DNA of 64,000 bases from a virus (IMGVR_UViG_2914923772_000011:10054-74053), one strand, 5' to 3'. Counted from the first letter of the stretch, positions 6,719-26,957 are shown. Notes: generated by a model from the sequence alone, not told the origin. Numbers and translations: made by a program.

Positions 6719-6733
6719 CTGCTGAAGGATATT

Positions 6734-6770
6734 GAGCCGCTAACAACGGCTCTTTATCTTTTCTTTTTCT
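6734..6770 (+). terminator. Intrinsic terminator with CTAACAA loop
   Basis: GAGCCG-CTAACAA-CGGCTC plus T-tract. Confidence 0.8.
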
Positions 6771-6827
6771 AACTTAGATTAAAACCCGGACGAAGGTGAC
6801 AGGTATCTGTGTTAAATTAGTATCTGG

Positions 6828-6855
6828 AAAAATCCCCGGGTTGAAATTTTTGAAA
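6828..6855 (+). promoter_or_regulatory. Second-class conserved motif AAAAATCYCCGG..GA.ATTTT.GAAA (copy A)
   Basis: 22/28 identical to 36067-36094. Confidence 0.4.
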
Positions 6856-6877
6856 AACAATTTGAAAGGAGATCGTT

Positions 6878-7093
6878 ATGGAAGTCGTTTATGTAGTTGT
6901 CGGAATCTTGATTGGGTATGTCGTCTCATCTATCATTCGCCGAAAGCATCCTGTCGGTTTTCTGCGTATTGACAAGTCTGATCCGGACGGACCCTATCTT
7001 TTTCTTGAACTGAAAAAGAACGTTAATGAAATTATAGCTCAAAGAACTGTCCTATTAGAAGTGAAGCGTGAAGACTTTATTCCGCACAAATAA
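6878..7093 (+). CDS. Small membrane-anchored hypothetical protein
   Basis: N-terminal TM segment; GAAAGGAG RBS. Confidence 0.75.
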   Translation: MEVVYVVVGILIGYVVSSIIRRKHPVGFLRIDKSDPDGPYLFLELKKNVNEIIAQRTVLLEVKREDFIPHK

Positions 7094-7109
7094 CACTTCC
7101 TTTTATGGA
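7083..7109 (+). promoter_or_regulatory. Phage promoter-like motif copy 2
   Basis: CGC acaaata ACA cttcctttt ATG ga. Confidence 0.65.
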
Positions 7110-7138
7110 ACCCTATTAAAACGAAAGGAGAAACGAAT

Positions 7139-7531
7139 ATGGGTGAAGAAAACAGAAGTTTGTTGGAAGAGGAGATCAAAGCCGAAATTAAGCGCTTGGG
7201 ATCTCTCGAATCCGGAAGTCAGGAGCATACCACAGCAGTGGATAGTTTGACGAAGCTGTACAAACTGAAGCTCGAAGAGGATAAGAATGCCTATGAGCGT
7301 CTGGACAAGATCGAGAACCGTGAAATCGATCAGGAGTCTAAGACGGCTCAAATGGCAGAGTCTGTCAAAGATCGATACTTCAGATTTGGTATGGCTGCCG
7401 CTGAGCTGGTGCTGCCGTTGATGTTCTACGGCGTTTGGATGAGACGAGGTTTCAAGTTCGAACAGGACGGAACTTTCACCTCCCAGACATTCAGAGGTTT
7501 ATTCAGTCGATTCAGACCGACTAAGAAATAA
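7139..7531 (+). CDS. Coiled-coil protein with C-terminal membrane segment (cassette gene)
   Basis: GAAAGGAGAAA RBS; hydrophobic MAAAELVLPLMFYGVW. Confidence 0.75.
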   Translation: MGEENRSLLEEEIKAEIKRLGSLESGSQEHTTAVDSLTKLYKLKLEEDKNAYERLDKIENREIDQESKTAQMAESVKDRYFRFGMAAAELVLPLMFYGVWMRRGFKFEQDGTFTSQTFRGLFSRFRPTKK

Positions 7532-7544
7532 ACCGGTTCCAAAA

Positions 7545-7583
7545 GCGGAGAGTTCGTGTATACAACACGTTCTCTTCGTTTTT
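7545..7583 (+). terminator. Intrinsic terminator (loop ATACA)
   Basis: GCGGAGAG..CGTGT/ACACG..CTCTTCGT plus T-tract. Confidence 0.65.
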
Positions 7584-7589
7584 CTCCTG

Positions 7590-7616
7590 CTCGAAATTTA
7601 CAAGGGCTATTGTGAG
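7590..7616 (+). promoter_or_regulatory. Phage promoter-like motif copy 3 (variant)
   Basis: CTC gaaattt ACA agggctatt GTG ag. Confidence 0.55.
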
Positions 7617-7704: not shown

Positions 7705-7920
7705 ATGAGCTTTTTTAACGACGCGCAGAGAGACGGTTTACTTACTGGACGGTATATTTGCAGTGAATGCGGAGGACTTATGGAATTTGAAGACGAGTGG
7801 GAAGATACTTTAGTATGTCCTGCTTGCGGTCACTCCGTCGATTTAGAGCATTATGGTATGGAGAACGATGAAGAATATGATGCTCTATATCCGACCAGAG
7901 ATCAAATCTGCGACGACTAA
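7705..7920 (+). CDS. Small acidic zinc-ribbon protein
   Basis: CSEC..CPAC; D/E-rich; AAGGAGG RBS. Confidence 0.8.
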   Translation: MSFFNDAQRDGLLTGRYICSECGGLMEFEDEWEDTLVCPACGHSVDLEHYGMENDEEYDALYPTRDQICDD

Positions 7921-7944
7921 TTAAGACTATTAGCAAAGGGGAAG

Positions 7945-7980
7945 GAGTCCTGACGAGGGCTCTTTCTCTTTTCTTTTTAT
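7945..7980 (+). terminator. Intrinsic terminator with TGACGA loop (variant of TAACAA)
   Basis: GAGTCC-TGACGA-GGGCTC plus T-tract. Confidence 0.75.
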
Positions 7981-7991: not shown

Positions 7992-8351
7992 ATGCGATAC
8001 CACTTTGACAAACCGGAAATTTACTTGTCCTTGTATGGCGAGCGTTATATTTGCGAGCATCCGGTTTACAATAGCTGCACTCTCTACAGAATTGAGAAAA
8101 GAGGTTTAGCAGTAATTCAGCAACGATTTGACTCCGAGACGAAAAGTACATGGTGGAGCGAAGTTGACCCTTGGATTACTGACGCTTTATATTTGCACCC
8201 TGATTTTCGAGAATACTTTGAAATGAGGGCTGGGGTGTGTACGGACGGAATATACCCTACTGTAACGGTTCGCCAAATTATGTGGGCATTAAAAATGAAA
8301 CCAATTCAGAAAGAACGATGGGAAACCGTATTCGATAGACGGGATATCTAA
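7992..8351 (+). CDS. Hypothetical phage protein
   Basis: AGGTGA RBS, intact ORF. Confidence 0.7.
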   Translation: MRYHFDKPEIYLSLYGERYICEHPVYNSCTLYRIEKRGLAVIQQRFDSETKSTWWSEVDPWITDALYLHPDFREYFEMRAGVCTDGIYPTVTVRQIMWALKMKPIQKERWETVFDRRDI

Positions 8352-8565: not shown

Positions 8566-8593
8566 GAGCCGCTAACAACGGCTCTTTTCTTTT
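8566..8593 (+). terminator. Intrinsic terminator with CTAACAA loop
   Basis: 8563-8587 is identical over 25 bp to 6731-6755. Confidence 0.8.
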
Positions 8594-8868: not shown

Positions 8869-8878
8869 AATCTGAAAG

Positions 8879-8906
8879 GAGCTGCTAACAACGGCTCTTT
8901 TCTTTT
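8879..8906 (+). terminator. Intrinsic terminator with CTAACAA loop
   Basis: GAGCTG-CTAACAA-CGGCTC plus T-tract. Confidence 0.75.
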
Positions 8907-8937: not shown

Positions 8938-9010
8938 AGACGGGTTAGCTCAGTTGGTAGAGCGCCACACTTCCGTGGAGGTCGTCGGTTCGAATCCGAT
9001 ACAGTCTCTC
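8935..9010 (+). ncRNA. tRNA-like RNA / pseudo-tRNA (canonical D and T arms, shrunken anticodon arm, elongated acceptor stem, no CCA)
   Basis: TAGCTCAGTTGGTAGAGC D arm; GTCGG-TTCGAAT-CCGAT T arm; CCAC-ACTTCC-GTGG anticodon arm; GAGAGAC/GTCTCTC closing stem. Confidence 0.75.
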
Positions 9011-9044
9011 TTGCTTTTTATTTTCGCATGAAAGGAGAAAAGAC

Positions 9045-9365
9045 ATGAGCATCGATCAGCTTGATCTAATCTTGTATGACATGTACCGCATGGACGCTTG
9101 GCTGCCGCCTTTGTTTGGTAAATGGACGGAAGATTATAAAAAAGCGAGTTACTCACAATGGGCTGTCGACGAGCTCAGAGATTTTATCGCCGAACGGATT
9201 TACCCTCGAAAAGAAGGGTCTATTGATGAATTCTGTAAGCTCACGCACGAATTCATGATGAAGACAGCTAAGTATGCGAGGGTGAATCCAAACACAAGTC
9301 TTATGTTCCGATCTGCCAGTGAAATGGCAGCGAACATTTTAGACCTTCTAAGGGCTATGGAATAA
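9045..9365 (+). CDS. Hypothetical protein, paralog of 10458-10763
   Basis: SYSQWAVDE versus SYQQWAAYE; GAAAGGAGAAAAGAC RBS. Confidence 0.75.
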   Translation: MSIDQLDLILYDMYRMDAWLPPLFGKWTEDYKKASYSQWAVDELRDFIAERIYPRKEGSIDEFCKLTHEFMMKTAKYARVNPNTSLMFRSASEMAANILDLLRAME

Positions 9366-9389
9366 CAAAAGCATGAAAGGAGAAAAGAC

Positions 9390-10214
9390 ATGAACAAAAA
9401 CCAAGCAATTCAAAAGTTGCTGCATAAGTCAGGGCTTTGTATCAGGAAATACTCACCTGTTGCATTGTCTTGTGTAGCATCAGCCGGCGTGGTAGTCACG
9501 GCAATTGCAGCAGCCAAAGCGACCCCACGAGCAGTAGCGTTAGTTTATGCAGACAGTCGCAAAAAGCATGATGGCGATCCATATGCGTACACCAAGAAAG
9601 AGGCGTTCATCGCTGCATGGAAATGTTATATTCCGGCAGTGGCATTTGGAGCTTCTACTATCGCTTGCATTATGGGTGCCAATGCCTTAAATCGACGCCA
9701 ACAGGCAGCACTAACAAGTGCGTATGCTCTCGTCCAAAGTTCTTATAAGGAATATAAGGACAAGCTGAAAGAACTCTATGGAGAAGAAGCACATAATGCA
9801 ATCATGGATTCCATCATCAAGGAAAAGTGCAAGGACATCAGCATCTCTGCTAATGGAGGTTGGTACGATTCTTCTCTTGACTTTGGCGAAGGCATGGAGC
9901 CTGAGGTTACTCGTACTTTCTACGATAGTTTTTCACAAAGATATTTTGTGTCAACAATCGAGAAAGTTATCCAGGCTGAGTACCATCTGAACCGCAATTT
10001 TATGTTCGCAGGGGTTATCCCACTTAATGACTTTTACGAGTTTCTTGGGCTTGAAAAGACGGAACTCGGAGATGCCGTAGGATGGTCAAGCTGTAATGGC
10101 GATATTTATTGGATCGACTTTAACCATCACCGACTCACTTTGGATGACGGCATGGAGATATATGTTATTGACATGGTTTTTGAGCCTACAGCTGAGTGGA
10201 TGGAAGATCTGTAA
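9390..10214 (+). CDS. DUF6353-like phage protein, paralog 1
   Basis: KYSPVALSCVASAGVVVTAIAAAKATPRA...YDSFSQRYF...LNDFYEFLGL pattern shared with 10780 and 13301. Confidence 0.75.
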   Translation: MNKNQAIQKLLHKSGLCIRKYSPVALSCVASAGVVVTAIAAAKATPRAVALVYADSRKKHDGDPYAYTKKEAFIAAWKCYIPAVAFGASTIACIMGANALNRRQQAALTSAYALVQSSYKEYKDKLKELYGEEAHNAIMDSIIKEKCKDISISANGGWYDSSLDFGEGMEPEVTRTFYDSFSQRYFVSTIEKVIQAEYHLNRNFMFAGVIPLNDFYEFLGLEKTELGDAVGWSSCNGDIYWIDFNHHRLTLDDGMEIYVIDMVFEPTAEWMEDL

Positions 10215-10266: not shown

Positions 10267-10437
10267 ATGAATAATGCAAAATTGGTTAAAATCCTGGGTC
10301 TTGTCGCTACCGCAGTAGGTATGGGGGCTACGCTCCTCACTGACTGGGTGAACGAGAAGAAGATGGAAGAAAAAATTGATGAACGCATCAATGAGAAGCT
10401 TGCCGCACTTAGCGATGAAGAAGATGAGGAGTCCTAA
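10267..10437 (+). CDS. 56-aa membrane-anchored peptide with acidic tail (cassette gene)
   Basis: MNNAKLVKILGLVATAVGMGATLL...; AAGGAGG RBS. Confidence 0.75.
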   Translation: MNNAKLVKILGLVATAVGMGATLLTDWVNEKKMEEKIDERINEKLAALSDEEDEES

Positions 10438-10458
10438 CAAGGGCTCTTCTTCTTTATT
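10429..10458 (+). terminator. Intrinsic terminator with TAACAA loop
   Basis: GAGTCC-TAACAA-GGGCTC plus T-rich tract. Confidence 0.75.
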
Positions 10459-10763
10459 TGAACGATATGTGTGATGCAAGCACGGCTGTTTCGATCATCC
10501 AACGATATGTTGGTGAGCATCTGTTCAGCCCATCCTTCACATGGCCAAAGTATGAATTCAGAAAAAGGTCATATCAGCAATGGGCTGCATATGAAATCTG
10601 TGATCGAATCATGGACAAGCCTTTCGACGATCCAATCACCATCATCGAAAACTTCATGTTCGAGATGGCTATGTATGCTTGTTACGGCGAGGATGAGCAG
10701 CGTAGCTTTATATTTCAGAATGCGGTCGAAACAGCTGAAGAATTAAGTCTACTATTTGTTTAA
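10458..10763 (+). CDS. Hypothetical protein, paralog of 9045-9365
   Basis: Shared SY.QWA motif; start codon uncertain. Confidence 0.65.
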   Translation: MNDMCDASTAVSIIQRYVGEHLFSPSFTWPKYEFRKRSYQQWAAYEICDRIMDKPFDDPITIIENFMFEMAMYACYGEDEQRSFIFQNAVETAEELSLLFV

Positions 10764-10779
10764 CCGAAAGGAGAAAATC

Positions 10780-11541
10780 ATGCCTAAACAAAGTTTAGCA
10801 AGCATTGCCAAAGGTGTACGGACGGCAATGAAAAAACATAGTCCTGAAATTCTCACCGGTATCGGAATTGCCGGCATGATTACCACCACTGTTATGGCGG
10901 TAAAAGCAACCCCAAAAGCTCTGATTCTGCTTGAAGAGAAAAAAGATGAGTTGGATACGGACAGACTTGAGCCGAAGGACATCATCAAGACAGCTTGGCC
11001 TTGTTATATTCCGGCGGCTGTCGTAGGCTCCATCTCTGTATTCTGCCTGATTGGGGCAAGCTCGACTAATCTTCGTCGAAATGCTGCGCTGGCAACGGCA
11101 TATACCCTTTCGGAGTCGACTCTCAAAGAGTATCAGGAAAAAGTCGTTGAGACAATCGGTGAGAAAAAGGAACAGTCCATTCGAGACTCTGTGTCGAAAG
11201 ACAAGATGGTTAAGAACCCTGTTCGAGAAATTATTCTCACCGAAAGCGGCGGGAACACAATCTGTTACGATGTCTTATCCGGACGATATTTCAAGTCTGA
11301 CAGAGATAAGATTACCAGAGTCATGAATGAACTGAATCGGCAGATGCGTGACGAAATGTATGTCACACTAAACGATTTCTACTATGAACTCGGTTTAGAC
11401 GGAACCAAGATGGGCGATATGCTCGGATGGAACATTGATAAGGGTTACATTGACCTTGCTTTCTCGTCCCAGCTGGATGCAAATGGCACCCCTTGCCTGG
11501 TGATCGACTATCAGGTAGCACCAGTTTACGACTATCAGTAA
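10780..11541 (+). CDS. DUF6353-like phage protein, paralog 2
   Basis: KKHSPEILTGIGIAG...CYDVLSGRYF...LNDFYYELGL. Confidence 0.8.
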   Translation: MPKQSLASIAKGVRTAMKKHSPEILTGIGIAGMITTTVMAVKATPKALILLEEKKDELDTDRLEPKDIIKTAWPCYIPAAVVGSISVFCLIGASSTNLRRNAALATAYTLSESTLKEYQEKVVETIGEKKEQSIRDSVSKDKMVKNPVREIILTESGGNTICYDVLSGRYFKSDRDKITRVMNELNRQMRDEMYVTLNDFYYELGLDGTKMGDMLGWNIDKGYIDLAFSSQLDANGTPCLVIDYQVAPVYDYQ

Positions 11542-11618: not shown

Positions 11619-11873
11619 ATGAACAACAATGAGATTATGAACAACGAGATCGTTGAAGCTACCGAAGAGGTTATCGAGAACGCTGGTTTGAGCAAGGGCG
11701 TAAAGATTGCTGCGGGTATCGGCTTGAGCGTAGTTGTAGGCGTGGTCGTCTACAAGTATGTAGCAAAGCCGGTGATCGCAAACATCAAAGCCCAGATCGA
11801 GCAGAAGAAGATGGCTGCTGAGGAGAAGACGGTTATCTTAGAAGAATCTGATGTTGTCACTGAAGACAACTGA
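11619..11873 (+). CDS. 84-aa single-TM protein (cassette gene)
   Basis: IAAGIGLSVVVGVVVY; GAAAGGAG RBS. Confidence 0.75.
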   Translation: MNNNEIMNNEIVEATEEVIENAGLSKGVKIAAGIGLSVVVGVVVYKYVAKPVIANIKAQIEQKKMAAEEKTVILEESDVVTEDN

Positions 11874-11900
11874 AAATGCGAATTTGAGAAGTTCGGATAA

Positions 11901-11940
11901 GGGAGAGTACCTGTAACAAGGTGCTTTCCCTTTTTCTTTA
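11901..11940 (+). terminator. Intrinsic terminator with GTAACA(A) loop
   Basis: GGGAGAGTACCT-GTAACA-AGGTGCTTTCCC plus T-tract. Confidence 0.8.
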
Positions 11941-11962
11941 TCTCTCGAAAGGAGAAAAAAAT

Positions 11963-12151
11963 ATGCAGCAGTATCAATATGACGGTCCTGTTATGCGATT
12001 CGATGATTGCGTTCAGCATCGTTGGAAAGCAACTACTGTTGCTCCGACGGAAGCGAAAGCGAAGAGCAATCTCGCCTATCGATATAAAAAAGAAAACGGC
12101 TTGATGCCGAACACAAAAATTACTCTGCCCGGTAAGCTGATTCCGGCATAA
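11963..12151 (+). CDS. Small hypothetical phage protein
   Basis: GAAAGGAGAAAA RBS. Confidence 0.7.
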   Translation: MQQYQYDGPVMRFDDCVQHRWKATTVAPTEAKAKSNLAYRYKKENGLMPNTKITLPGKLIPA

Positions 12152-12167
12152 GAAAGGAGATTACCCA

Positions 12168-12773
12168 GTGGAAGATTACAAGTCTAATTCTGATAAAGCT
12201 CGTCAGGAGCAGCAGTCAGAAAAGAAAGTTGAGGCGGTTATTACCGGGGCTGCAAAAACTCGAAAAAAAGGTGAGATGCAAAAATTTGCAGATGTATTTA
12301 TTGCCGAGGATGCAAACAATGTCAAATCTTATATTTTGATGGAGGTCATTGTGCCTGCTGTCAAGAAAGCGATTTCTGACATTGTCACTACCGGTATCGA
12401 TATGATCCTGTACGGCGAGGCAGGTCGAAGCAAGAAAAACGGAACGGCGTCTAAGGTGTCTTACCGAAACTATTATGAACGGGACGCGGACAGAGTGCGT
12501 GCAGGTTCCGTTGGCAACAGACGCAATACACCTGATTATGATGATATTCTCTTCGATACCCGTGGAGATGCGGAAGCGGTTCTCGATGCAATGAACGATA
12601 TCATCAGTCAGTATGGAACGGTGAGCGTGTCCGATTTCTATGATCTCGCTCGTGTTCCCAATGATAATTTCACTATGAACCGCTACGGTTGGACAAACAT
12701 TGGCGGTGCAACTGCGGTACGAGTTCGAGATGGTTATATTCTGAAACTGCCTCGTGCTATCCCGCTGAATTGA
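12168..12773 (+). CDS. Conserved hypothetical phage protein
   Basis: GAAAGGAG RBS with GTG start; intact 201-aa ORF in operon. Confidence 0.75.
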   Translation: MEDYKSNSDKARQEQQSEKKVEAVITGAAKTRKKGEMQKFADVFIAEDANNVKSYILMEVIVPAVKKAISDIVTTGIDMILYGEAGRSKKNGTASKVSYRNYYERDADRVRAGSVGNRRNTPDYDDILFDTRGDAEAVLDAMNDIISQYGTVSVSDFYDLARVPNDNFTMNRYGWTNIGGATAVRVRDGYILKLPRAIPLN

Positions 12774-12786
12774 AAGGAGAAAAATA

Positions 12787-13026
12787 ATGCTTGAATGCAA
12801 AATTTGTGGCACTAAATTCAATGCCATTATCGAGAGACATTATATTGCTCGTGATAACGGAAAGACTGGTTTGGCAGTTGCCTTTGGCTCTACTGCCGAA
12901 GAAGGTTTATATGACACATTTGATTGCCCGATGTGCGGCTGTCAGGTAATTGCTAAGGAGCGTAAGCGTAACTATATTCCGTTTATTTCTACAGATGAGG
13001 AGGATGCAGATGATGACCAGATCTGA
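12787..13026 (+). CDS. Zinc-ribbon protein
   Basis: CKIC and CPMC pairs. Confidence 0.7.
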   Translation: MLECKICGTKFNAIIERHYIARDNGKTGLAVAFGSTAEEGLYDTFDCPMCGCQVIAKERKRNYIPFISTDEEDADDDQI

Positions 13027-13279
13027 GACTCTCGATAAAGCAAAGGCTTGCGTATGTGGGCAGAGAGAGAACGAATACGGCTCTCCGGAAGATAACTTCA
13101 CTGCTATTGCAGGCTTCTGGAGCGTCTATAAAGGCGTTGAATTTACCGCAAATGATGTTGCCATGATGATGGCACTTCTTAAGATCGCACGAATCAGGAC
13201 AGGAACGGCTACGGACGACAGCTATGTCGATTTGGCTGGATACGCTGCCTGTGGTGCTGAAATCAATTCCAACAAATAA
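13010..13279 (+). CDS. DUF6378-like phage protein
   Basis: QRENEYGSPEDNF..IA.FWS.Y..DVAMMMALLKIAR..DSYVDLAGYAACG. Confidence 0.7.
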   Translation: MMTRSETLDKAKACVCGQRENEYGSPEDNFTAIAGFWSVYKGVEFTANDVAMMMALLKIARIRTGTATDDSYVDLAGYAACGAEINSNK

Positions 13280-13300
13280 TGAAAAGGAGATTTTATAAAC

Positions 13301-14218
13301 ATGAAAAATAAGACTGAAATCATGAAGAGCGTGAGCGGTGTGGCTTCCAAGACCGTTATGAAGCTCAAGAAACACAGCCCCGAGATTCTCGTTGTGGCTG
13401 GTATTGCCGGTACGGTCGTAAGTGCCGTTCTCGCTTGCAAGGCCACCACTAAGGTAGCAGAGATTCTCGATGAAACTAAGGGTACTCTCGACACCATTCA
13501 TGAAGGTGTGGAAACCGGTGCAATCAACGGTCAGGAGTATACGACTGAGGACGGCAAGAAGGACACGGTTGTTGTCTATGCCCAGACCGGAATGAAGCTC
13601 GCAAAGCTTTATGCTCCTGCTATTATTCTCGGCACTCTGTCCATCACCAGCATTCTGGCATCCAACAATATTCTTCGCAAGCGCAATGTAGCTCTTGGCG
13701 CTGCCTATGCCGCTATTGATAAGAGCTTCAAGGAATATCGCGGTCGTGTCATCGAGCGCTTCGGAGAGCAGGTCGATACCGAACTGAAGTATGGCATCAA
13801 GGCGAAGAAGTTCGAGGAAATCGAGGTTGATCCCGAGACCGGCAAGGAGAAGAAGGTTAAAAAGACTGTGATGGTCGCTGATCCTAATCTCCAGAGCGAT
13901 TACGCTGTATATTTCGACAGCAAGAGCCGCAACTATGAGACTAACCCCGATTACAACCGCATGTTCCTCAAGGCACAGCAGGCATTTGCAAATGACAAGC
14001 TTCAGACCCGTGGTCACCTCTTCCTGAATGAGGTTCTGGACGATCTGGATCTTCCTCGTACCCCTGCTGGTCAGATTGTCGGTTGGACAAAGGATGGTCC
14101 GGATGGCTATGTTAATTTCCGCATCGTTGAGGTAGAGCGCGAGACCGAAGACGGTCGTCATGAGCCGGCACTTCTGCTCGACTTCAATGTTGAGGGCAAC
14201 ATCTGGGAAAAGATGTAA
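13301..14218 (+). CDS. DUF6353-like phage protein, paralog 3
   Basis: KKHSPEILVVAGIAG...LFLNEVLDDLDL. Confidence 0.8.
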   Translation: MKNKTEIMKSVSGVASKTVMKLKKHSPEILVVAGIAGTVVSAVLACKATTKVAEILDETKGTLDTIHEGVETGAINGQEYTTEDGKKDTVVVYAQTGMKLAKLYAPAIILGTLSITSILASNNILRKRNVALGAAYAAIDKSFKEYRGRVIERFGEQVDTELKYGIKAKKFEEIEVDPETGKEKKVKKTVMVADPNLQSDYAVYFDSKSRNYETNPDYNRMFLKAQQAFANDKLQTRGHLFLNEVLDDLDLPRTPAGQIVGWTKDGPDGYVNFRIVEVERETEDGRHEPALLLDFNVEGNIWEKM

Positions 14219-14275
14219 TCAATCACCTTCAGACTTGGACTGGGGGTGATATTTTATTGTAAAGGAGTTTTAGCA

Positions 14276-14839
14276 ATGCACATCAAACCACGAGCGATAG
14301 CTACCGTTCTCTGCATGATATTTTTCATCGGTTTTGCGGTATGCGGCGTTGTTCGCTCTACAGATAAAGAAACATCGGAGATTAGGCAATCCTATCCGGT
14401 TCTTGCAGAGGCAGAGCCGATGATTATGGCTGATCTTCTGATGGAATCTCCTAACTTAACGCCTGAGGTTGAGAAAGAGCCAGACTACCCTCTTACACAA
14501 GAGGAAATCGACCTCATAGCACTCGTAACCATGGGTGAAGCTGAAGGAGAAACAGAACTGGGAAAACGCTTAGTCATTGATACAATTCTTAACCGTATTG
14601 ACCATACATCTTTCCCGGATACTGTGTACGATGTTGTTTATCAACCCAATCAGTTCAGCGTAATGTGGAACAGCAGGATTGACCGTTGTTATGTCATGCC
14701 TGAGATTGTTGAGTTGGTAAAGGAAGAACTTTTGGAACGGACAAATTACGATTGTGTGTTCTTCATGGCCGGAGGATACAGTAAGTATGGTGAGCCTTTG
14801 TTTCAGGAGTGTTGTCACTACTTTTCGAGTTATGACTGA
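14276..14839 (+). CDS. SleB-type cell wall hydrolase with N-terminal membrane anchor
   Basis: LIALVTMGEAEGE..VIDTILNR..VVYQPNQFS. Confidence 0.8.
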   Translation: MHIKPRAIATVLCMIFFIGFAVCGVVRSTDKETSEIRQSYPVLAEAEPMIMADLLMESPNLTPEVEKEPDYPLTQEEIDLIALVTMGEAEGETELGKRLVIDTILNRIDHTSFPDTVYDVVYQPNQFSVMWNSRIDRCYVMPEIVELVKEELLERTNYDCVFFMAGGYSKYGEPLFQECCHYFSSYD

Positions 14840-14853
14840 AAGGAGAACATAAA

Positions 14854-15715: not shown

Positions 15716-15727
15716 TAGGAGGATCGA

Positions 15728-19700: not shown

Positions 19701-20891
19701 GGACCGGAATACACAAAGCGATTCGACGAAATTCTTCAGGCTCGTATTGCTATCAAGCATAAGGATTTTGACAAAGCAAAGAAGATGCTGGGTGGTGCAT
19801 TGGCTAAGTACCTGACTGACGAGAATGCTGCGGCTGACTTGGCACAGGCTCTGAAAATTGCAATTAACTCCGTGTACGGTCTGACCTCAGCCGGATTTGA
19901 AAACCCGTTCCGGGATAACCGTAACAAGGATAACATCGTTGCGAAGCGTGGAGCTCTGTTTATGGTCAATCTCAAGCACGCTGTTCAGAGTCAGGGCTTT
20001 ACTGTGGCACACATCAAAACCGACTCCATCAAGATTCCGGATGCAACGCCTGAGATCATCAAGTTTGTAACTGAATACGGCAAGCTGTATGGGTACAACT
20101 TTGAACACGAAGCAACCTACGACCGTATGTGTCTGGTAAACGACGCAGTTTATATTGCTCGTTATGCTACAGTCGAGAAGTGCTGTGACCTGTACGGGAA
20201 AAAGTACATCGACTCTGCAAAGGATATTTGCAAGGAGAACAAGAAGCATCCGTATGCGTGGACAGCAACCGGTACACAGTTCCAGATTCCTTATGTTTTC
20301 AAGACGCTCTTCAGCAAGGAGAACATCGAGTTCGAGGATATGTGCGAGACGAAATCTGTAACTTCCTCGCTCTATCTTGACATGAACGAGGCTCTGCCGG
20401 ATGTAAGTGCCCTTGAAGCGGAAAGAGATAAACTGTGGAAACAGATTACCGATTCTAAACGCATGACTGAGCCGATGTCCACTGAATGTAAGCGTGTCGA
20501 AGAATTAACGGACGAAATTGCCAAGGGTCATAACTACCACTTTATCGGAAAAGTTGGTCAGTTCTGCCCGATTAAGCCTGGCTGCGGAGGCGGCATCCTG
20601 CTTCGTGAAACAGAAAACAAGAAGACTGGTGAAAAGGGTTACGCTGCTGCTACGGGTTCTAAGGGCTTCCGCTGGCTTGAGTCCGAGATGGTCAAGCAGC
20701 TGGACAAACAGGGTGACATTGACCGTGGTTATTACAACAACATGGTAGACGAAGCAGTCAAGTCTCTGTCTGTTTATGGTGACTTCGAACGCTTTGCGGC
20801 GGACGAACCGTATGTTTCGGATAACACACCACCGTGGTTCGGAGCTGGCGAGCCTCATGAGGACGATACTACGCCGTTTGATGTGAGGTAA
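16740..20891 (+). CDS. Fused SF3 helicase - AEP primase - 3'-5' exonuclease/family B DNA polymerase
   Basis: GAAGTGKST Walker A; VIDFD and SKSGQGIHLHY primase motifs; YDVE, GFNCRRYD, YCDND exonuclease motifs; DIASMHPS, KIAINSVYG, KTDS polymerase motifs. Confidence 0.9.
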   Translation: MIDFLMISTRSTKRGVIEIYPKFIIKKSSDLMIRGGDFYAIWLEDRGLWSTDEQDALQLIDRELDKYAEENRKNFDSSIKVLHMWDSESGMIDSWHKYCQKQMRDSFHMLDEKLIFSNTPTNKKDYASKRLNYPLEEGATDAWNKLMSTIYSKEERTKIEWAIGSIVCGESKKLQKFMVLYGAAGTGKSTVLNIVQQLFEGYYSVFDAKALGSSSNSFALEAFKTNPLVAIQHDGDLSRIEDNTRLNSLVSHELMTVNEKFKSTYANRFKCFLFMGTNKPVKITDAKSGLIRRLIDVSPSGNKLSPKEYKAVTKQIEFELGAIAYHCQEVYLENPGRYDDYIPVTMLGASNDFYNFIIDSYHVFKKEDGTTLKASWEMYKTYCDEAKVTFPFSQRIFKEELKNYFRDYKERFNLDDGTRVRSYYIGFRTEKFEDKALTEQDEPEHKLIEFLKQKSVFDRECADCPAQYASAKETPTSKWDEVSTKLSNLTTSRLHYVKVPENHIVIDFDIQDKDGNKSYELNLKEASKWPPTYAELSKSGQGIHLHYIYAGDVSKLSRVYDDHIEVKVFTGKSSLRRKLTKCNDLPIATINSGLPLKGEKQVINFEGVKSEKGLRTQIKRNLNKEYHPATKPSIDFIYKILEDAYASGLNYDVTDMRNAVLAFAASSTHQADYCIKLVNKMQFKSADQSAGAKNDDAKLVFYDVEVFPNLFLVNWKIEGEGKPVVRMINPTPTEIEELMRFRLVGFNCRRYDNHILYARLMGYTNEQLYNLSTKIINGSANCFFGEAYNVSYTDVYDFSSKKQSLKKFEIELGIHHQELGLPWDKPVPEELWTKVAEYCDNDVIATEATFNARKADFTARQILADVAGMSVNDTTNSLTTRIIFGNNRKPQDQFNYRFMGDESQIFDPNADLPFTMGLEDYDEFTQFDKNHRPIFPGYTFEGGKSVYRGEEVGEGGYVYSEPGMYSNIALLDIASMHPSSIVAEELFGPEYTKRFDEILQARIAIKHKDFDKAKKMLGGALAKYLTDENAAADLAQALKIAINSVYGLTSAGFENPFRDNRNKDNIVAKRGALFMVNLKHAVQSQGFTVAHIKTDSIKIPDATPEIIKFVTEYGKLYGYNFEHEATYDRMCLVNDAVYIARYATVEKCCDLYGKKYIDSAKDICKENKKHPYAWTATGTQFQIPYVFKTLFSKENIEFEDMCETKSVTSSLYLDMNEALPDVSALEAERDKLWKQITDSKRMTEPMSTECKRVEELTDEIAKGHNYHFIGKVGQFCPIKPGCGGGILLRETENKKTGEKGYAAATGSKGFRWLESEMVKQLDKQGDIDRGYYNNMVDEAVKSLSVYGDFERFAADEPYVSDNTPPWFGAGEPHEDDTTPFDVR

Positions 20892-20896
20892 TGCTT

Positions 20897-21022
20897 ATGA
20901 TTTTAATTCTGTTAATTGCTGTGTTCATTTATATTTTGTGCACGGCTGATTCTACCGAGTCCTGTATTCCCAATGAGGAGTGCAGGACTTGCCCATTTCC
21001 ATGCGACAAACGCAAAAATTGA
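20897..21022 (+). CDS. 41-aa membrane-anchored Cys-rich peptide (not in the ORF track)
   Basis: MILILLIAVFIYILC...CIPNEECRTCPFPCDKRKN. Confidence 0.5.
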   Translation: MILILLIAVFIYILCTADSTESCIPNEECRTCPFPCDKRKN

Positions 21023-21037
21023 AAGGAGAAACTAATT

Positions 21038-21520
21038 ATGGCTTATAAAGCAGTAGACAACATCATCATCGAGAATGCTCGAATTATCTTCCGCAACTTT
21101 AAGGGTGAGGAGTCCAAGTACAATCGTGCTGGCTCCCGCAATTTCTGCGTGGTCATTGAAGATCCCGATATGGCGCAGAAGCTTATTGAGGATGGCTGGA
21201 ATGTTCGTGTTTTGGCTCCTCGTGATGAGGACGAGGCTCCTCGCCATTATATTCAGGTGGCGGTCAGCTTCGACAACATCCCCCCGAAGGTTATTATGAT
21301 TACTCGTCGAGCTAAGACTCAGCTGGATGAGGAGTCTATCGGAACTCTGGACTTCGCAGAGATCCGCAATGTCGACCTGACTATCCGTCCCTACAACTGG
21401 GAGGTCAATGGTAAGACTGGCGTCAAGGCATACCTTAAGACGATGTATGTCACCATTGAAGAAGACGAATTCGCTGAAAAGTATGCCGAAACTGAGGGTC
21501 CTGAGGAGATGCCCTTCTAA
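21038..21520 (+). CDS. ssb: Single-stranded DNA-binding protein
   Basis: OB-fold-like aromatic/basic strands; acidic tail ending EEMPF; follows the polymerase. Confidence 0.75.
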
Positions 21521-21626
21521 AGGTGAATAGGTGCCAGCTTAGTACATGTCTGGTTAAATGTCCAGTAAGGTCTCGATTAGGTGTGCACGCCTATGATGGT
21601 AAGAGGAAACAGCCTATTCCCCTTTA
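21518..21626 (+). ncRNA. Candidate multi-stem structured RNA between ssb and the methylase-like gene
   Basis: 13/14-bp closing stem 21518-21531/21613-21626 with two inner hairpins. Confidence 0.35.
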
Positions 21627-21648
21627 GTAACCGAAAGGAGGTAAAGCC

Positions 21649-22518
21649 ATGTTGTGGCAGAAAAAGAAGAAACGCAAAAAGGCTACCAAGCCTAAAGCAG
21701 TTACTTTAGTTGCTCCTCAGCAGCCGGTGGAAGAGATTCCGCAAACGACTGAGCCTGAGGAAAAAGAAGAAACGCCAAAGCAAAAAAAGCCCGCTGGGGA
21801 AAAATACAAAAAGGTTTTGTCCCCGGAAAAAGCTTTCTTAGATGCATTCGGACGATTGACTAACCGACATCGGGCTTGGGATGTTTGGCGTGACTTCATC
21901 ACTATGTTCGCTTGTTCGCTATCTAATCCTCTCGATAAGGAGCACCGGGATAAGCGAGAAGCGTTATATTTGGAAATCATCAAAAAGTACAATAAGCAGG
22001 AACAAGAGGTGTTTCCTGAACTGGCTGCTCAGACTGTCTTGGCTTTGGAAGAAAATCCGGAGCAGGACTTTCTGGGCAGCATTTTCATGTCCCTTAAGCT
22101 CGGTGACGAGCATAACGGTCAGATCTTCACACCGTATCATGTCTGTGAACTAATGGCTGAAATGACGATGGATGATGTTGTAAAAAAGGTAGAACAGGAC
22201 GGTTATATTTCAATTAACGATCCGTGCTGCGGAGCTGGGGCCACATTGATTGCCGGAATCCACACTGCAAGGAAGCAGTTGGAAAAAGTAAACTTGAACT
22301 ACCAAAATCATCTTCTCGTCGTTGCACAGGATATCGATGAAACGGTGGCGCTTATGTGTTATATTCAGCTTTCACTTTTGGGGGTAGCAGGATATGTAAA
22401 GGTCGGAAACTCTCTGACAGAACCGATGACAGACAACGACAATAAAGAGAACTACTGGTTCACGCCAATGTATTATTCTAATGTCTGGGTGCTGCGTCGG
22501 ATCTTCGGAGGGCGCTGA
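21649..22518 (+). CDS. N6-adenine methyltransferase-fold protein lacking a visible NPPY/F motif
   Basis: GQIFTPYHV and NDPCCGAG SAM-binding motif; ends VGNSL..FTPMY. Confidence 0.7.
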   Translation: MLWQKKKKRKKATKPKAVTLVAPQQPVEEIPQTTEPEEKEETPKQKKPAGEKYKKVLSPEKAFLDAFGRLTNRHRAWDVWRDFITMFACSLSNPLDKEHRDKREALYLEIIKKYNKQEQEVFPELAAQTVLALEENPEQDFLGSIFMSLKLGDEHNGQIFTPYHVCELMAEMTMDDVVKKVEQDGYISINDPCCGAGATLIAGIHTARKQLEKVNLNYQNHLLVVAQDIDETVALMCYIQLSLLGVAGYVKVGNSLTEPMTDNDNKENYWFTPMYYSNVWVLRRIFGGR

Positions 22519-23756
22519 TGGCAGGTATATCACTTCGAGACTATCAAACAGATGCCGTTGAGAGAATGAAAAACGGCTGCATTCTCTGTGGCGGTGTCGG
22601 TAGTGGCAAATCCAGAACAGCTTTAGCCTATTACTACAAACAGAATGGTGGTAAGCTCGGCACAAAAAGTTATATTCGGATGCCGGGTACGCCAAAAGAC
22701 CTGTACATCATCACCACGGCGAGAAAGAGAGATACTTTGGAATGGGAGGGTGAGCTTTCGCCCTTCCTTCTCTCTGTTCACGCGGAAGTCAATACCTATA
22801 AAAATAAGGTCGTCGTTGATTCCTGGAACAATATCGGGAAGTATGCAACGGTTACGGATGCGTTCTTTATATTTGACGAGCAGCGTGTTGTTGGTTCAGG
22901 AGCATGGGTTAAGGCATTCCTGAAAATTGCCAAGTTTAACGAATGGATTCTACTATCTGCCACCCCAGGAGACACATGGGAGGATTATATTCCTGTTTTT
23001 GTTGCAAACGGCTTTTATAAAAACCGGACTGCCTTCAAAGAAGAACACATGGTCATGACTTGGGTAAACGGAAAGTATCCAAAAGTAGACAGATATTTAG
23101 GGGTAGGACGACTCATCCGACTTCGCAATCGCATTCTTGTGGATATGGATTTTAAGCGGGAAACCTGTTCGCACCATGAGGATGTTTATGTCAATTATGA
23201 TGTTGCGAAGTATAAAGAGACAAGTCGTCTTCGCTGGAACCCATATAAAAACGAGCCGATTGTCAACGCCGGAGAACTCTGCTATGTATGGCGACGCATC
23301 GTAAATGAGGACGAGTCCAGGCAAATCGCTCTAATGGAGCTGTTTGAGAAACATCCTAAAATGATCGTCTTCTACAATTTCGACTACGAGCTTGATATTC
23401 TGAAAAATCTCTACTATGGAGAAAATGTTGAGATTGCAGAATGGAACGGTCACAAGCATCAACCGATCCCGACTTGCGACAGTTGGGTGTATCTGGTTCA
23501 GTATACTGCTGGAGCCGAAGGTTGGAACTGCATTAGCACAGACACCATTGTGTTCTACTCGCAGAATTACTCCTACAAAATTATGAAGCAGTCAGCTGGG
23601 CGAACCGATCGCTTAAATACTCCGTTCAAAGATTTATATTACTACCATTTGAAATCCCGTTCCGGCATTGATTTGGCTATCAGTCGAGCGTTAAGCGAAA
23701 AGCGGAATTTCAACGAAACCAAGTATGTCGGCAGCTATAAACCCAAAGCTGCCTGA
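22518..23756 (+). CDS. SF2 (DEAD/SNF2-like) helicase
   Basis: GGVGSGKS, FDEQ, LSATP, QSAGRTDRL. Confidence 0.85.
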   Translation: MAGISLRDYQTDAVERMKNGCILCGGVGSGKSRTALAYYYKQNGGKLGTKSYIRMPGTPKDLYIITTARKRDTLEWEGELSPFLLSVHAEVNTYKNKVVVDSWNNIGKYATVTDAFFIFDEQRVVGSGAWVKAFLKIAKFNEWILLSATPGDTWEDYIPVFVANGFYKNRTAFKEEHMVMTWVNGKYPKVDRYLGVGRLIRLRNRILVDMDFKRETCSHHEDVYVNYDVAKYKETSRLRWNPYKNEPIVNAGELCYVWRRIVNEDESRQIALMELFEKHPKMIVFYNFDYELDILKNLYYGENVEIAEWNGHKHQPIPTCDSWVYLVQYTAGAEGWNCISTDTIVFYSQNYSYKIMKQSAGRTDRLNTPFKDLYYYHLKSRSGIDLAISRALSEKRNFNETKYVGSYKPKAA

Positions 23757-23769
23757 GAAAGGAGAAAAG

Positions 23770-23988
23770 ATGATAACAATTGATGTCGCGGAGTATTGCT
23801 CTGCTTGCATGGACTTCGACCCAGATGTTCAACGACCGCAAAAAGCATACGGAATGAGTGAAGAGATCGTCATATCCGACACGGTCATTCGATGCTCAAA
23901 TCGAAATCGGTGCAAAAACATTGAGCGATACCTGAGAAAGAAGGTGACGAACGATGGCGTTGGCAAGACTGACGAAGCAATGCCGTGA
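23770..23988 (+). CDS. Small Cys-containing hypothetical protein
   Basis: GAAAGGAGAAAAG RBS. Confidence 0.65.
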   Translation: MITIDVAEYCSACMDFDPDVQRPQKAYGMSEEIVISDTVIRCSNRNRCKNIERYLRKKVTNDGVGKTDEAMP

Positions 23989-24223
23989 ATGTCCTTTTGT
24001 CGAGACCTGTGAGCACAAGGAAGTGGAAGCATTGGGATATTTACCAGAACCGATTATGACAGATGCCAAAGTCCCGGTTACTGCTGATATAGCAGCTCCC
24101 ATTTTGAGAGAAACCGTAAGCCGTGTAGTAGACGGCAAAGTAGCAACAATGTATAAGGACGAGTTGGAGAAGGTCCTTTATAAAGATTTATATTCTCATC
24201 TCGGACTTCAGTTTGGAGGATGA
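23954..24223 (+). CDS. Small hypothetical protein
   Basis: CRECPFVETC motif; overlaps the previous gene. Confidence 0.6.
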   Translation: MALARLTKQCRECPFVETCEHKEVEALGYLPEPIMTDAKVPVTADIAAPILRETVSRVVDGKVATMYKDELEKVLYKDLYSHLGLQFGG

Positions 24224-24698
24224 ATATGCATAACAATACCAACAATTCAGACAGAATGAATACTGTCGCTTATAAAATCGGGCAGGCTATCGCGCTGGTA
24301 GCTTGTCTTTGTGTTTCTGCCATCGTCATTGCTTTAACTGTGAAGTGCATCCTGTGGATTTTGTAAGGAGTTTTTGCAGATGAATGAAGAAAAGGAAGTC
24401 TATTTTGACCAGTATTGCAAATCTTGCAAATACCACGGTCTTGAAGAGTCCAAAGACCCGTGCAATGACTGTCTCGCAGAACCCAGCAATACAAATTCCC
24501 ACAAACCGATGAACTATGAAAGCAAAAACAATTCTTGATGCCGAGAAAAAGGATGCGATTGATATTGCAACGGAACTTTGCTATAGCGAAGAAGTCAAGA
24601 GAAAAATTGCACAGGCAAAATCTGTTTACGAAATTGGTCGCATCCTTAAACAAGCACGGCTCGATCAAGAGTGATATTTCTGAAAGGAGAAAAGAAAC

Positions 24699-24998
24699 AT
24701 GAATCTTGAGGAGTTCAGAAAGGCACTTTCGTCAGATGCTACTGAAGAGAATGCACAACTGAAAAGACAGTTGTCAGACCTTCAGACTGAATACCATGAA
24801 AAGCTTTCAAAACTCGAAAATGAAAACGATTCACTTAAAGAAAGTTGTCGGGTTTTATGCAATCGATGCTTTACTCTTACGAGAGGTGTTACTTGTCTAT
24901 TTTGTGGTCTCGATTACCCCTGCCCTCATATGCCGGGGCTTGAGGAACAGGTGGCTATGGCTCATAAATTGAGAAAGGAGATCGAAAAAAATGGCTAA
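24699..24998 (+). CDS. Coiled-coil protein with Cys cluster
   Basis: GAAAGGAGAAAAGAAAC RBS; CNRC..CLFC. Confidence 0.7.
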   Translation: MNLEEFRKALSSDATEENAQLKRQLSDLQTEYHEKLSKLENENDSLKESCRVLCNRCFTLTRGVTCLFCGLDYPCPHMPGLEEQVAMAHKLRKEIEKNG

Positions 24999-25230
24999 TG
25001 GGTATCGTAATGCTCTTGTTCAGCAAATAAAAGACGCAGGTCAAGAACTTATCAACCGAGCTGAATCGATGGTGCATCCCGAAAATGATTTAATCACTGA
25101 TTTTTCCATAGTAATCCATTTCGAGCAGCATGAGGTACCTACAATCGACTACACAACCAGCGTGGTAAACAAAGTTGCTTGCGATCGGGTTATCTATCAG
25201 AAAGGAGAATCCAATGTCTCAAAAATATGA
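24991..25230 (+). CDS. Small hypothetical protein
   Basis: GAAAGGAG RBS; coupled to neighbours. Confidence 0.65.
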   Translation: MANGYRNALVQQIKDAGQELINRAESMVHPENDLITDFSIVIHFEQHEVPTIDYTTSVVNKVACDRVIYQKGESNVSKI

Positions 25231-25727
25231 TGAATATCTGGAAAAACACAGGCAAGCTGTAAAAAAGGCTTATCAGTGGATTGCTGCTTATATTCCTGAA
25301 CTGACAGATGTGGAGGCGACTCGAAATATTGAGTTCCATGATATGTCGAAGAATACGCCAGATGAGTACACGCCTTATGACAACTATTTCTATGGGGGAG
25401 CAAACCCCAGCAATCATCGAGGCGTTTAACCGGGCATGGCTTATGCATATCCACCGAAACCCCCATCATTGGCAGTATTGGGTCTTAATCAACGACGAAC
25501 CTAAAGAAGGAACTATCCTTATCGAAATGCCGTATCCATACATTATTGAGATGATCTGTGACTGGTGGGCATTCAGCTGGATTAAAGGTGACCTTTCCGA
25601 AATGTTTGCCTGGTATAAAGACCATGCCGATTATATTAAGATGCACAATAATACTCGTTCGATTGTGGAAGAGATTCTGGAAATGATTCGGACGAAGCTT
25701 ACGGAGGTAGAAAATGCTGAAAATTGA
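25214..25727 (+). pseudogene. HD-domain (DUF5662-like) phosphohydrolase split by a +1 frameshift in a G5 run
   Basis: Frame 1 has EFHDMSK; frame 2 continues GEQTPAII..HIHRNPHHWQYW; removing one G at 25394-25398 fuses them. Confidence 0.7.
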
Positions 25728-26481
25728 AAACACCGAGGTTATGGGCTGGGAGCACGCCATTCGTGGTATGCGAAACCCTAAGAACTCTTGGGAGAAGACA
25801 GACTCATATCCTGCTGTTGACTGTGGAAAGTGCGGTAAAATCGAGAGAGAGGATATTTGCAAAAAAGAGGACCGTAATTGTACGGGTTTTGAATGCTTTG
25901 AAGTGGGCCCGAATGACCTGAAGCTTATGACGACCCTTCGCAACGCAGGCACAGACCATCGTAAGTTCATGCGGATGATTACGGTCTATCTTGACATCAC
26001 CGCCCCGCTGTATTGGTGGAAGGAGTTCGATACTTACAAGGTTGGTACGGTTGCCAATTCCTGTTCCACGATGCATAAGATTGCGGATAAGGAGTTTACG
26101 CTGGCGGATTTTAGTTGCGAGCATCTGGATCGCGAACCTTATCATCGCAACTGGATCGAGAGCGTAATCGTCGATGAAGATATCACTTCGCCACACAAGG
26201 TATGGATGACACCATTTGATGTTCTTAGATGCACGATCGAGATGCTAAACGCATATCGTGAAAACTACCTTGAAACCAAGGATAAACAGGATTGGTGGCA
26301 GATGATCCAGCTTCTCCCGAGCTCTTACAACCAGCGCCGGACAGTTATGCTAAACTACGAGGTTCTGGCGAACATCTATAAGTCCCGTCGGAACCACAAG
26401 CTCGACGAGTGGCATACGTTCTGTGACTGGATTGAGAGCCTGCCTTATTCTGAGCTTATTACTGGCGAAAAGAAAGGATGA
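25714..26481 (+). CDS. Divergent ThyX-like (flavin-dependent thymidylate synthase fold) protein
   Basis: DHRKFMRMITVYLDITAPLYWWKEFDTYK..NSCSTMH and LLPSSYNQRRTVMLNYEVLANIY..R..HKL.EW resemble ThyX, but no RHRx7S motif. Confidence 0.5.
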   Translation: MLKIENTEVMGWEHAIRGMRNPKNSWEKTDSYPAVDCGKCGKIEREDICKKEDRNCTGFECFEVGPNDLKLMTTLRNAGTDHRKFMRMITVYLDITAPLYWWKEFDTYKVGTVANSCSTMHKIADKEFTLADFSCEHLDREPYHRNWIESVIVDEDITSPHKVWMTPFDVLRCTIEMLNAYRENYLETKDKQDWWQMIQLLPSSYNQRRTVMLNYEVLANIYKSRRNHKLDEWHTFCDWIESLPYSELITGEKKG

Positions 26482-26673
26482 AAGATGATAAAATTCGTAG
26501 TCAATCAGCTTCCTTATTACGGAGAGCTGTGTCCTCTATGGACGATGTGCAGTAAAAATGCAAAGGAACATGAATGCCCGAGATACTGGGATAAATATAA
26601 AGTCTGCTTAGATGAAAACCCACATGAATGTGAGCACCTTATTGAGACAGGGAAACTCTAATAAATGTTCCTG

Positions 26674-26700
26674 CACGAAAAAAACACCCCCTATTATGAA
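26674..26700 (+). promoter_or_regulatory. Phage promoter-like motif copy 9 (variant)
   Basis: CAC gaaaaaa ACA ccccctatt ATG aa, directly followed by AAAGGAGG. Confidence 0.6.
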
Positions 26701-26715
26701 AGGAGGTAACGCACA

Positions 26716-26907
26716 ATGAATTATTTTCTGGCAGTTAATGATCGGCAACTTGGAACTTGCTTGAGAATGCTGTTTGCTGAAAAACTTCAACCTGCTGTCC
26801 AAACCGTGTTGAACGAAAAGGGCAAGATTGAGTTTCATATTAGCATTGCAGCAGATCAGGAAGTGTTCGAAGAGCTGAACGAACGCTACAAGATCATGAT
26901 TTCGTAA
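26716..26907 (+). CDS. 63-aa hypothetical protein (cassette gene)
   Basis: RBS; bounded by promoter motif and terminator. Confidence 0.75.
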   Translation: MNYFLAVNDRQLGTCLRMLFAEKLQPAVQTVLNEKGKIEFHISIAADQEVFEELNERYKIMIS

Positions 26908-26925
26908 GTTACTCGATTTCGAAGG

Positions 26926-26957
26926 TAAAGGGGCCGTAACAAGCCCTTTTACTTTTG
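26926..26957 (+). terminator. Intrinsic terminator with CGTAACAA loop
   Basis: TAAAGGGGC-CGTAACAA-GCCCTTTTA plus T-tract. Confidence 0.7.

Follow-up and report, generated by a model that had tools for sequence, protein, structure and literature searches.

Why should terminators with different stems carry the same loop, and how are genes transcribed that lie behind such terminators with no promoter motif of their own? The question is raised by the early region of a 74-kb IMG/VR provirus, of which we analysed one stretch of 64,000 nucleotides (nt), called the window below (IMGVR_UViG_2914923772_000011, bases 10054-74053). To our knowledge, little is known about the control of early transcription in temperate phages of gut Clostridia. 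An earlier note on this DNA had proposed that the shared loop, T(A/G)AC(A/G)A, is a binding site through which a phage factor, or a phage RNA polymerase, turns short early transcripts into long delayed-early ones. The explanation that we hold to be probable, with some reservation, is a plainer one drawn from sequence comparison: the host RNA polymerase would read the hairpins as intrinsic terminators or attenuators, and they would be copies of one module that has been carried to the 3' ends of early genes.

Hairpins at the ends of early genes

The earlier note had listed eight hairpins with a T tract behind them, and all eight are present where it placed them. Each is a stable hairpin at a gene end, followed by a T tract on the transcribed strand; predicted folding energies run from -14.6 to -25.9 kcal/mol (z = -3.8 to -6.5 against shuffled sequences), and none of 200 shuffles was as stable. 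The sites are given here with the coordinates of the site list, where these differ, in brackets.

6734-6768 (6734-6752), plus strand: T1, class I, loop CTAACAA, -15.7 kcal/mol; ends the cassette with open reading frame (ORF) 6491-6718
7541-7583, plus strand: T2, a terminator of another kind, loop ATACA, promoter motif behind it; the control
7935-7979 (7935-7972), plus strand: T3, class II, 17 pairs, loop TGACGA, -24.6 kcal/mol
8566-8593 (8566-8584), plus strand: T4, class I, loop CTAACAA, identical to T1; promoter motif 9 nt on
8874-8906 (8874-8902), plus strand: T5, class I, loop CTAACAA, one stem base different; then a promoter motif and a tRNA-like gene
10420-10458 (10426-10449), plus strand: T6, class II, loop TAACAA, -20 kcal/mol
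11899-11943 (11899-11932), plus strand: T7, class III, loop TGTAACAA, -25.9 kcal/mol
26920-26962 (26920-26957), plus strand: T8, stem of its own, loop CGTAACAA, -21.2 kcal/mol; ends the cassette 26673-26907

When 103 copies were aligned on the loop, three stem registers could be told apart, written here as 5' arm, loop and 3' arm.

Class I: GRGCCG, C-TAACAA, CGGCTC (T1, T4 and T5)
Class II: GAGTCC, TAACAA or TGACGA, GGRCTC (T3 and T6)
Class III: AGTRYC, TG-TAACAA, GGTRCT (T7)

That different stems carry the same loop is therefore correct between classes and fails within them, where T1 equals T4, T5 is one base off, and T3 and T6 share GAGTCC/GGGCTC. T2 (at 7545), which had been thought related to the loop family, is not a member of it, as its loop drifts freely in relatives, and the terminators further on (27319, 31053 and 31903) have other loops. 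Over the whole window TAACAA shows no excess, with 36 copies against 35.4 expected. It is nonetheless the commonest hexamer in terminator loops, which make up about 0.5% of the sequence and hold 5 of its 24 plus-strand copies by a strict finder, or 6 when T5 is included. No Rfam family reached its gathering score at the hairpins, the best match being a weak one to ctRNA_p42d (23 bits, against a gathering score of 50 bits).

The way in which the stems vary points to RNA. Standard pairs fill 93.7% of pair cells, against 60-71% when the partners are slid by one or two columns. One class II pair alternates between UG, UA and CG, and in class III AT, GC, GT and CG alternate at three pairs; the changes are compensatory, and wobble pairs are present on the plus strand only. 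An inverted repeat with many copies in one orientation, in an early region where no CI-type repressor was seen, might also be read as a DNA site, an operator or a stoperator-like roadblock for a phage repressor. The wobble pairs rule out a duplex DNA site, since G-T pairs stand on one strand only and change to A-T or G-C, so that it is the RNA pairing that is kept; the loop, moreover, has 4 to 8 nt across the family, a variation that no dimeric DNA binder would accept, and a T tract is always present downstream. A role at the level of DNA is thus very improbable indeed. G-U pairs, their exchange for A-U and G-C, the T tract and the single orientation show, as far as sequence can, that the module acts as RNA of the plus strand. 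The check for covariation across relatives that had been suggested for these hairpins succeeded in this respect, the stem changes being of RNA type, and fell short in another, the class II stem being almost as invariant as its loop. Among 120 distinct class II rows the commonest pair is kept in 93-99% for five of the six inner pairs and in 75% for the sixth, and to that extent the objection that the stems are as identical as the loop applies, within class II.

The distribution of the element was followed with a conserved early protein as family marker.

5838-6257, plus strand: conserved early protein of 139 amino acids, family marker and candidate transcription factor

The marker was found in 568 relatives in IMG/VR. 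In species genomes (Oscillospiraceae, Lachnospiraceae, Christensenellaceae and others) it was found in 156 stretches, in more than 150 species and at identities as low as 52%; hairpins of the same type recur in the marker-bearing relatives. A covariance model built from 55 class II copies had 238 matches in 75 loci, 237 of them on the gene strand. In the genomes of Clostridium leptum, H. hathewayi and R. torques, every match of at least 27 bits lies in a prophage or in an extra copy of the early block at a contig end, and matches elsewhere in these three genomes are weak, at most 26.5 bits. Since the strong matches are confined to prophages, the element belongs to the phage family and not to the host. 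A general style of host terminator, considered as another source of the likeness, was ruled out on the same confinement of matches to this prophage family. C. leptum DSM 753 carries a 99% identical copy of the window's phage. [Ruminococcus] torques ATCC 27756 has three more identical copies of the early block near contig ends (L164, L165 and L166), in which the DUF6431 gene is separated from the next gene by a class II hairpin; the window has none at that place.

An embedded stop codon and a constrained loop

In class II the 5' arm runs on into the loop as coding sequence: GAG TCC and the first loop triplet, TAA or TGA, spell Glu-Ser-stop in frame. A stop codon opens 214 of 220 class II loops. 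Among 311 distinct motif hairpins the first loop triplet closes an open frame of at least 40 codons in 147, compared with 15 and 20 for the other two frames, and 168 of 247 unique upstream proteins end exactly at the loop triplet (class II, clustered ORFs). The genes so ended are of many kinds, as 32 of 60 unrelated upstream families stop in the loop, in every member for 29 of them and in part of the members for 3. ORF 10267-10437 of the window ends in Glu-Ser-stop, its TAA being the first triplet of the T6 loop; the TGA of the T3 loop is in frame 11 codons past the real stop of ORF 7705-7920, and the loop stop of T4 is in frame 5 codons past that of its upstream ORF. These counts over predicted genes show that many unrelated upstream genes receive Glu-Ser-stop from the class II 5' arm together with the first loop triplet. 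The embedded stop codon accounts for the choice between A and G at the second position of the class II loop.

With a stop codon inside the hairpin, the ribosome itself might act as the gate. A terminating ribosome would cover the 5' arm and, if close behind the polymerase, block the hairpin, and read-through would depend on upstream translation. The stop in the loop in 168 of the 247 class II cases would suit such an attenuator, as would class I, where the upstream stop comes a few bases ahead of the hairpin and peaks 14-15 nt before the loop (41 of 70). In E. coli the ribosome represses almost completely a terminator that lies a few bases past a stop codon (PMC4824070). However, stops in the loop are not enriched before promoter-less genes, and in class III, the site at which read-through is most needed, the stop is 41 nt away on the upstream side. 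The polymerase of Bacillus subtilis runs ahead of the ribosome; the same may hold in Clostridia, and if so it would void the mechanism. We consider ribosome gating improbable.

T2 serves as a fair control for the loop. It is conserved in position, downstream of the homologue of ORF 7139-7531, and its stem is kept throughout the family, whereas its loop takes about 40 forms in 65 unique hairpins, none of them above 8%. At the T7 position GTAACA stands in about half of 47 unique hairpins, and most of the others are one transition away. In counts anchored on the stems only and taken over distinct instances, the single commonest loop makes up 53% of class II, 61% of class I and 66% of class III. 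The earlier note had claimed a constraint on the loop and had read it as a binding site; the first part stands, with the loop selected at the T7 and T3 positions as against T2, and for the second no binding factor was found.

Judged from these alignments, the loop is constrained but not essential. Among T4 orthologues the loops CCAACAA and GCAA occur, and three contigs have TTGTTAG, the exact reverse complement. About eight lineages carry a GAAA loop on a longer stem in the place of T3, and some deep relatives have GAGTCC/GGACTC stems around loops such as AATCAC or GAAA. Flipped loops occur between close relatives, as CTAACAA against TTGTTAG in orthologues of 8566-8584 and, at another hairpin, as AAGGAAACTT against AAGTTTCCTT (L071 against L074-L077). 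The reverse-complement loops are, on the evidence of such pairs, small inversions at the hairpins.

If the hairpins are copied terminators, part of the loop conservation would follow from the embedded stop codon and from the shared descent of the copies. The remainder, namely the CAA or CGA half of the loop and the loops of classes I and III, would answer to another constraint, perhaps that of a bound factor or of a structural need. Several results weigh against this reading. T3 orthologues at moderate divergence keep TGACGA and have not been converted to TAACAA, so the copies have been conserved one by one rather than homogenised, which argues that selection has probably acted on each loop, beyond shared descent alone. 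The loop stop cannot explain class III (0 of 72), class I (6 of 70) or the CAA half of the loop, and there is no link between a stop in the loop and a promoter-less downstream gene (13% vs 15%, p = 0.72). The host-genome searches that assign the element to the phage family scored just 150 first-look candidates per genome.

Promoter motif, read-through and exchange of cassettes

The layout of genes around the hairpins was read with the help of a motif scan.

6449-6488, plus strand: putative promoter motif (A-rich stretch, wACA, exactly 7 nt, TTATG)

Other copies of this motif start at 7082, 7589, 8593, 8910, 10217, 11549, 26673 and 31955, and a variant lies near 8353; matches of the scan at 11612, 11615 and 25719 were dismissed, as they lie within coding sequence and lack the motif's flanks. 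Promoter-less blocks, as claimed before, were confirmed by the scan: no credible motif stands before 7992, before 10458 or within 11963-26660. ORF 7992-8351 follows directly behind T3, the block 10458-11541 lies behind T6, and T7 sits 30 nt upstream of the ATG of the first gene of the replication block (11963).

The same arrangement holds in relatives, where neighbourhoods were counted over distinct contexts and the promoter motif was sought within 80 nt downstream. Class I has the motif in 63 of 92 copies (68%), at a median offset of 19 nt, class II in 39 of 279 (14%) and class III in none of 81; in 79 of these 81 the next start codon comes no more than 45 nt further on. In nearly all relatives about 37 nt separate the class III hairpin from the first gene of the replication block downstream, and a hairpin of whatever sequence stands upstream of the homologues of the 11963 gene product in nearly all of 118 loci, being absent in 2 of the unique rows listed. 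The counts show class I joined to the putative promoter motif, a unit that would insulate swappable cassettes as the PeSL (promoter-early stem-loop) of T4 does, and classes II and III placed before promoter-less genes.

With no motif after class III and a start codon close by, transcripts of the replication block must pass T7, and from the gene layout read-through is required at class III and at many class II sites. For these the claim that the terminators have to be read through is upheld; class I has a promoter motif of its own in 68%. Termination is predicted to be partial, so that each cassette would give an abundant short transcript and a rarer one that reads through into the next genes, and read-through at T7 would feed the replication block. 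Promoters after T3, T6 or T7 that would use the loop as their -35 element were also considered. Only the T7 spacing was passable, and the role was rejected there because the T tract of T7 differs by 0-2 nt among close relatives. Transcription of the region must fall to the host enzyme, as no phage RNA polymerase was seen.

Close relatives differ in which cassettes they carry, and insertions and deletions are common. Nearly all of 80 relatives lack the T1 cassette (6485-6756), which breaks at a repeated string, 6484/6757; insertions of 300-500 nt in relatives sit at repeated ribosome-binding strings, 9375/9383 and 10766/10777, and other deletions end at promoter or terminator units. The breakpoints as a whole fall at repeated ribosome-binding, promoter and terminator strings, few of them inside the hairpin and most at the ribosome-binding repeats. 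Identical ribosome-binding strings before neighbouring genes (9030-9047 and 9372-9392; 10766-10777) coincide with insertion breakpoints in relatives.

Turnover of this kind suggests a further explanation, in which hairpin and promoter motif together form a linker of the PeSL type, a homology patch for the swapping of cassettes, and the identity of the loops is a by-product of recombination and spread. The terminator-promoter composites in 68% of class I fit it, as do units that flank small variable ORFs, the nearly unique T1 cassette and the insertions and deletions at 6484/6757, 9375/9383 and 10766/10777; the class II hairpin hardly varies from host to host over its full length, stem as well as loop, and there is a T4-type precedent, including a crossover mapped inside a loop (PMC2839356, PMC4122927). 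It accords less well with the mapped breakpoints, most of which lie at ribosome-binding-site repeats and not at the hairpin, or with the T3 orthologues that keep TGACGA and the T7 orthologues that keep their own stem, in which no homogenisation is seen. About 20 nt is also a short homology patch, and T2 occurs in the same kind of junction, yet its loop drifts. We regard a linker role as the source of the shared loops as possible, if rather doubtful.

Another possibility is that the loop, as U(A/G)AC(A/G)A in RNA, is the site of a phage factor or of a modified polymerase that switches the terminators to read-through and short early into long delayed-early transcripts. The constraint on the loop where the loop of a plain terminator (T2) is free, the same loop on three classes of stem, and the need to pass class II and class III sites would all be accounted for. 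The element is phage-specific, so a partner, if there is one, should be encoded by the phage, and four small conserved proteins, two with zinc ribbons, are encoded just upstream. Against this, ten early ORFs compared with Pfam, PHROGs and NCBIfam gave no RNA-binding, antiterminator or N-type match, N-type proteins being hard to detect, and near the early promoter no promoter-proximal hairpin with this loop and without a T tract was found. Nor was a conserved complementary site of the TTGTTA type found within 10 kb of the marker, the best 100-nt bin being present in 42 of 160 loci, mostly close relatives.

The variation of the loop speaks against such a factor as well. In some lineages it has become GAAA or GCAA, has been flipped or has drifted, in genomes whose other copies are canonical; no lineage has switched its consensus, as a co-evolving pair would. 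Whether genes 5177, 5590 and 6257 are present makes no difference to the share of canonical loops (0.72-0.73 vs 0.66-0.69). A protein that bound the loop once formed would stabilise the terminator rather than defeat it, and class I, with the same loop, has its own promoter motif in 68%. In the absence of an N-like or RNA-binding protein, a nut-like hairpin or a co-evolving loop variant among what was searched, the lambda-like factor of the earlier note was not borne out, and we judge a loop-reading switch of this kind unlikely. A loop-binding regulator in the wider sense is possible though similarly unlikely, and would differ from N/boxB in a defining feature. A more particular form of the idea, for which we see a slightly smaller chance still, makes the loop the handle of an undescribed phage regulator in Gram-positive hosts that acts on the terminator itself at a dozen sites, with the stop codon tying it to upstream translation. 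Such a regulator, if it exists, would set the amount of transcription that continues beyond the cassette genes and reaches the replication genes.

Read-through could also be brought about with no part for the loop sequence, if the 139-amino-acid protein bound the conserved stretch in the promoter motif and rode the polymerase through all hairpins in the manner of Q. Its predicted structure (pLDDT 82) has in the last 70 residues a likeness to the helix-turn-helix of sigma region 4 in many solved complexes (Z 4.2-5.3; root-mean-square deviation, rmsd, 2-3 A), and its top-ranked chain is Q21 in the Q-engaged complex (6jnx_P, Z 5.9). In a protein atlas the nearest named cluster has Phage_antitermQ in 27% of its members, DUF722 and DUF1492 being the other leads there, and the conserved stretch of the motif would be superfluous for a plain sigma-A promoter. 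The Q21 alignment is poor, however (rmsd 6.9 A over 103 residues), Z values below 8 are common for helical models, and the atlas rows are weak and flagged as often chance. No match was found by Foldseek against the PDB, by a PDB profile search or in NCBIfam, and Pfam scans of all 41 homologues gave nothing consistent. A Q-type mechanism would also leave the constraint on the loop without explanation, and we assign it a low probability. The promoter motif holds a conserved inner stretch that could be the site of the 139-amino-acid protein.

Of the surrounding genes, those from about 5177 onward are on the plus strand.

3888-5159, minus strand: tyrosine integrase
from about 5177, plus strand: four small conserved early genes, in order DUF6431, an 83-amino-acid protein, the 139-amino-acid protein and a 67-amino-acid zinc ribbon
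11620-11873, plus strand: small membrane-type ORF between the promoter motif at 11549 and T7, with 41 nt from its stop to the T7 loop
from 11963, plus strand: replication block, with a 1383-amino-acid DUF5906 protein, a methylase and a helicase-like protein

The array of small genes comes after the four conserved early genes, and NrdD, the large terminase and the structural genes lie downstream of the replication block. The sole family match of the 1383-amino-acid protein (16740-20891, plus strand) is DUF5906, at residues 180-293. A 9-base-pair inverted repeat with loop ATGTCAAC separates the integrase from the early genes at 5168-5193, and nine related loci have the same hairpin with loop ATTGTCAAC; it is likely the switch operator. 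The tRNA-like gene (8939-9007, plus strand) has its own promoter cassette and scores 39.6 bits with the Rfam tRNA model; it was not called by ARAGORN, and its anticodon arm looks shortened. The ORF-free region 30460-30830 is dense with AAAAGCCCAC and GTGGGC repeats in both orientations and may be a replication origin or an operator array. An RT-18 RNA (Rfam RF03021, 44.7 bits) at 59445-59526 on the plus strand lies directly 5' of an ORF of 386 amino acids (59530-60690, plus strand), and the two look like a reverse-transcriptase-associated, diversity-generating element. A DNA search of phage records matched only a tRNA-like stretch and one unannotated gut phage.

Relation to known systems

The element, which is easily recognised, marks the borders of cassettes and the entry to the replication genes in a very common prophage family (568 IMG/VR contigs, more than 150 species), and with the covariance model the terminators of these prophages and the limits of their cassettes can be annotated. 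As a natural system it lends itself to the study of partial termination. It is also a clear example of a portable terminator providing unrelated genes with a stop codon of its own, and the selection on its loop, explained in part, is a testable lead to a possible new regulator.

Lambda N/boxB, the system to which the earlier note had appealed, has with the present one a small hairpin with a purine-rich conserved loop in early transcripts, and strong terminators before the delayed-early (replication) genes. By eye, the class II stem and loop are similar to the boxB of lambda and P22. However, boxB lies near the promoter, upstream of the terminators and without a U tract, whereas here the hairpin is the terminator, with a T tract behind every strong copy. 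The loop, of 4-8 nt, is not a GNRA-like pentaloop, and neither boxA nor an arginine-rich N-like protein was found. The lambda tR1 and tR' layouts, in which a leaky or Q-dependent terminator stands behind an early promoter and ahead of essential genes, share the order of promoter, short unit, strong terminator and essential operon, represented here by the motif at 11549, ORF 11620-11873, T7 and the replication block; the 139-amino-acid protein of the present phage has only a weak similarity to Q.

Effects of the ribosome on intrinsic terminators near stop codons have been described at single E. coli loci (Li et al. 2016, PMC4824070; microcin C mccA, PMC4231749). There, as here, a stop codon inside or just before the hairpin means that translation and termination can interfere. 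The present case, known from sequence, differs in that a portable module gives the same two codons and a stop to dozens of unrelated genes.

By analogy, the closest known system is the terminator-promoter cassette of T4, and the terminator or attenuator module that we hold to be probable would be one of the PeSL kind. In PeSLs of the T4 type a terminator and a promoter form one conserved unit; these units stand on either side of orphan genes and undergo recombination (Arbiol, Comeau, Krisch 2010; Comeau 2014; PMC2839356, PMC4122927). In both, a conserved terminator hairpin is combined with an early promoter, here a putative motif, the composite is repeated many times, it flanks small orphan genes in a variable early region, and relatives gain and lose whole cassettes. 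The present hosts are Clostridia and the phages temperate prophages, and the motif is of no obvious sigma-70 type. In contrast to T4, only class I is a composite, classes II and III standing before promoter-less genes, and the loop is conserved, that of class II holding the stop codon of the upstream gene. Neither an embedded stop that serves many unrelated genes nor a loop under selection, here explained in part, is described for PeSLs.

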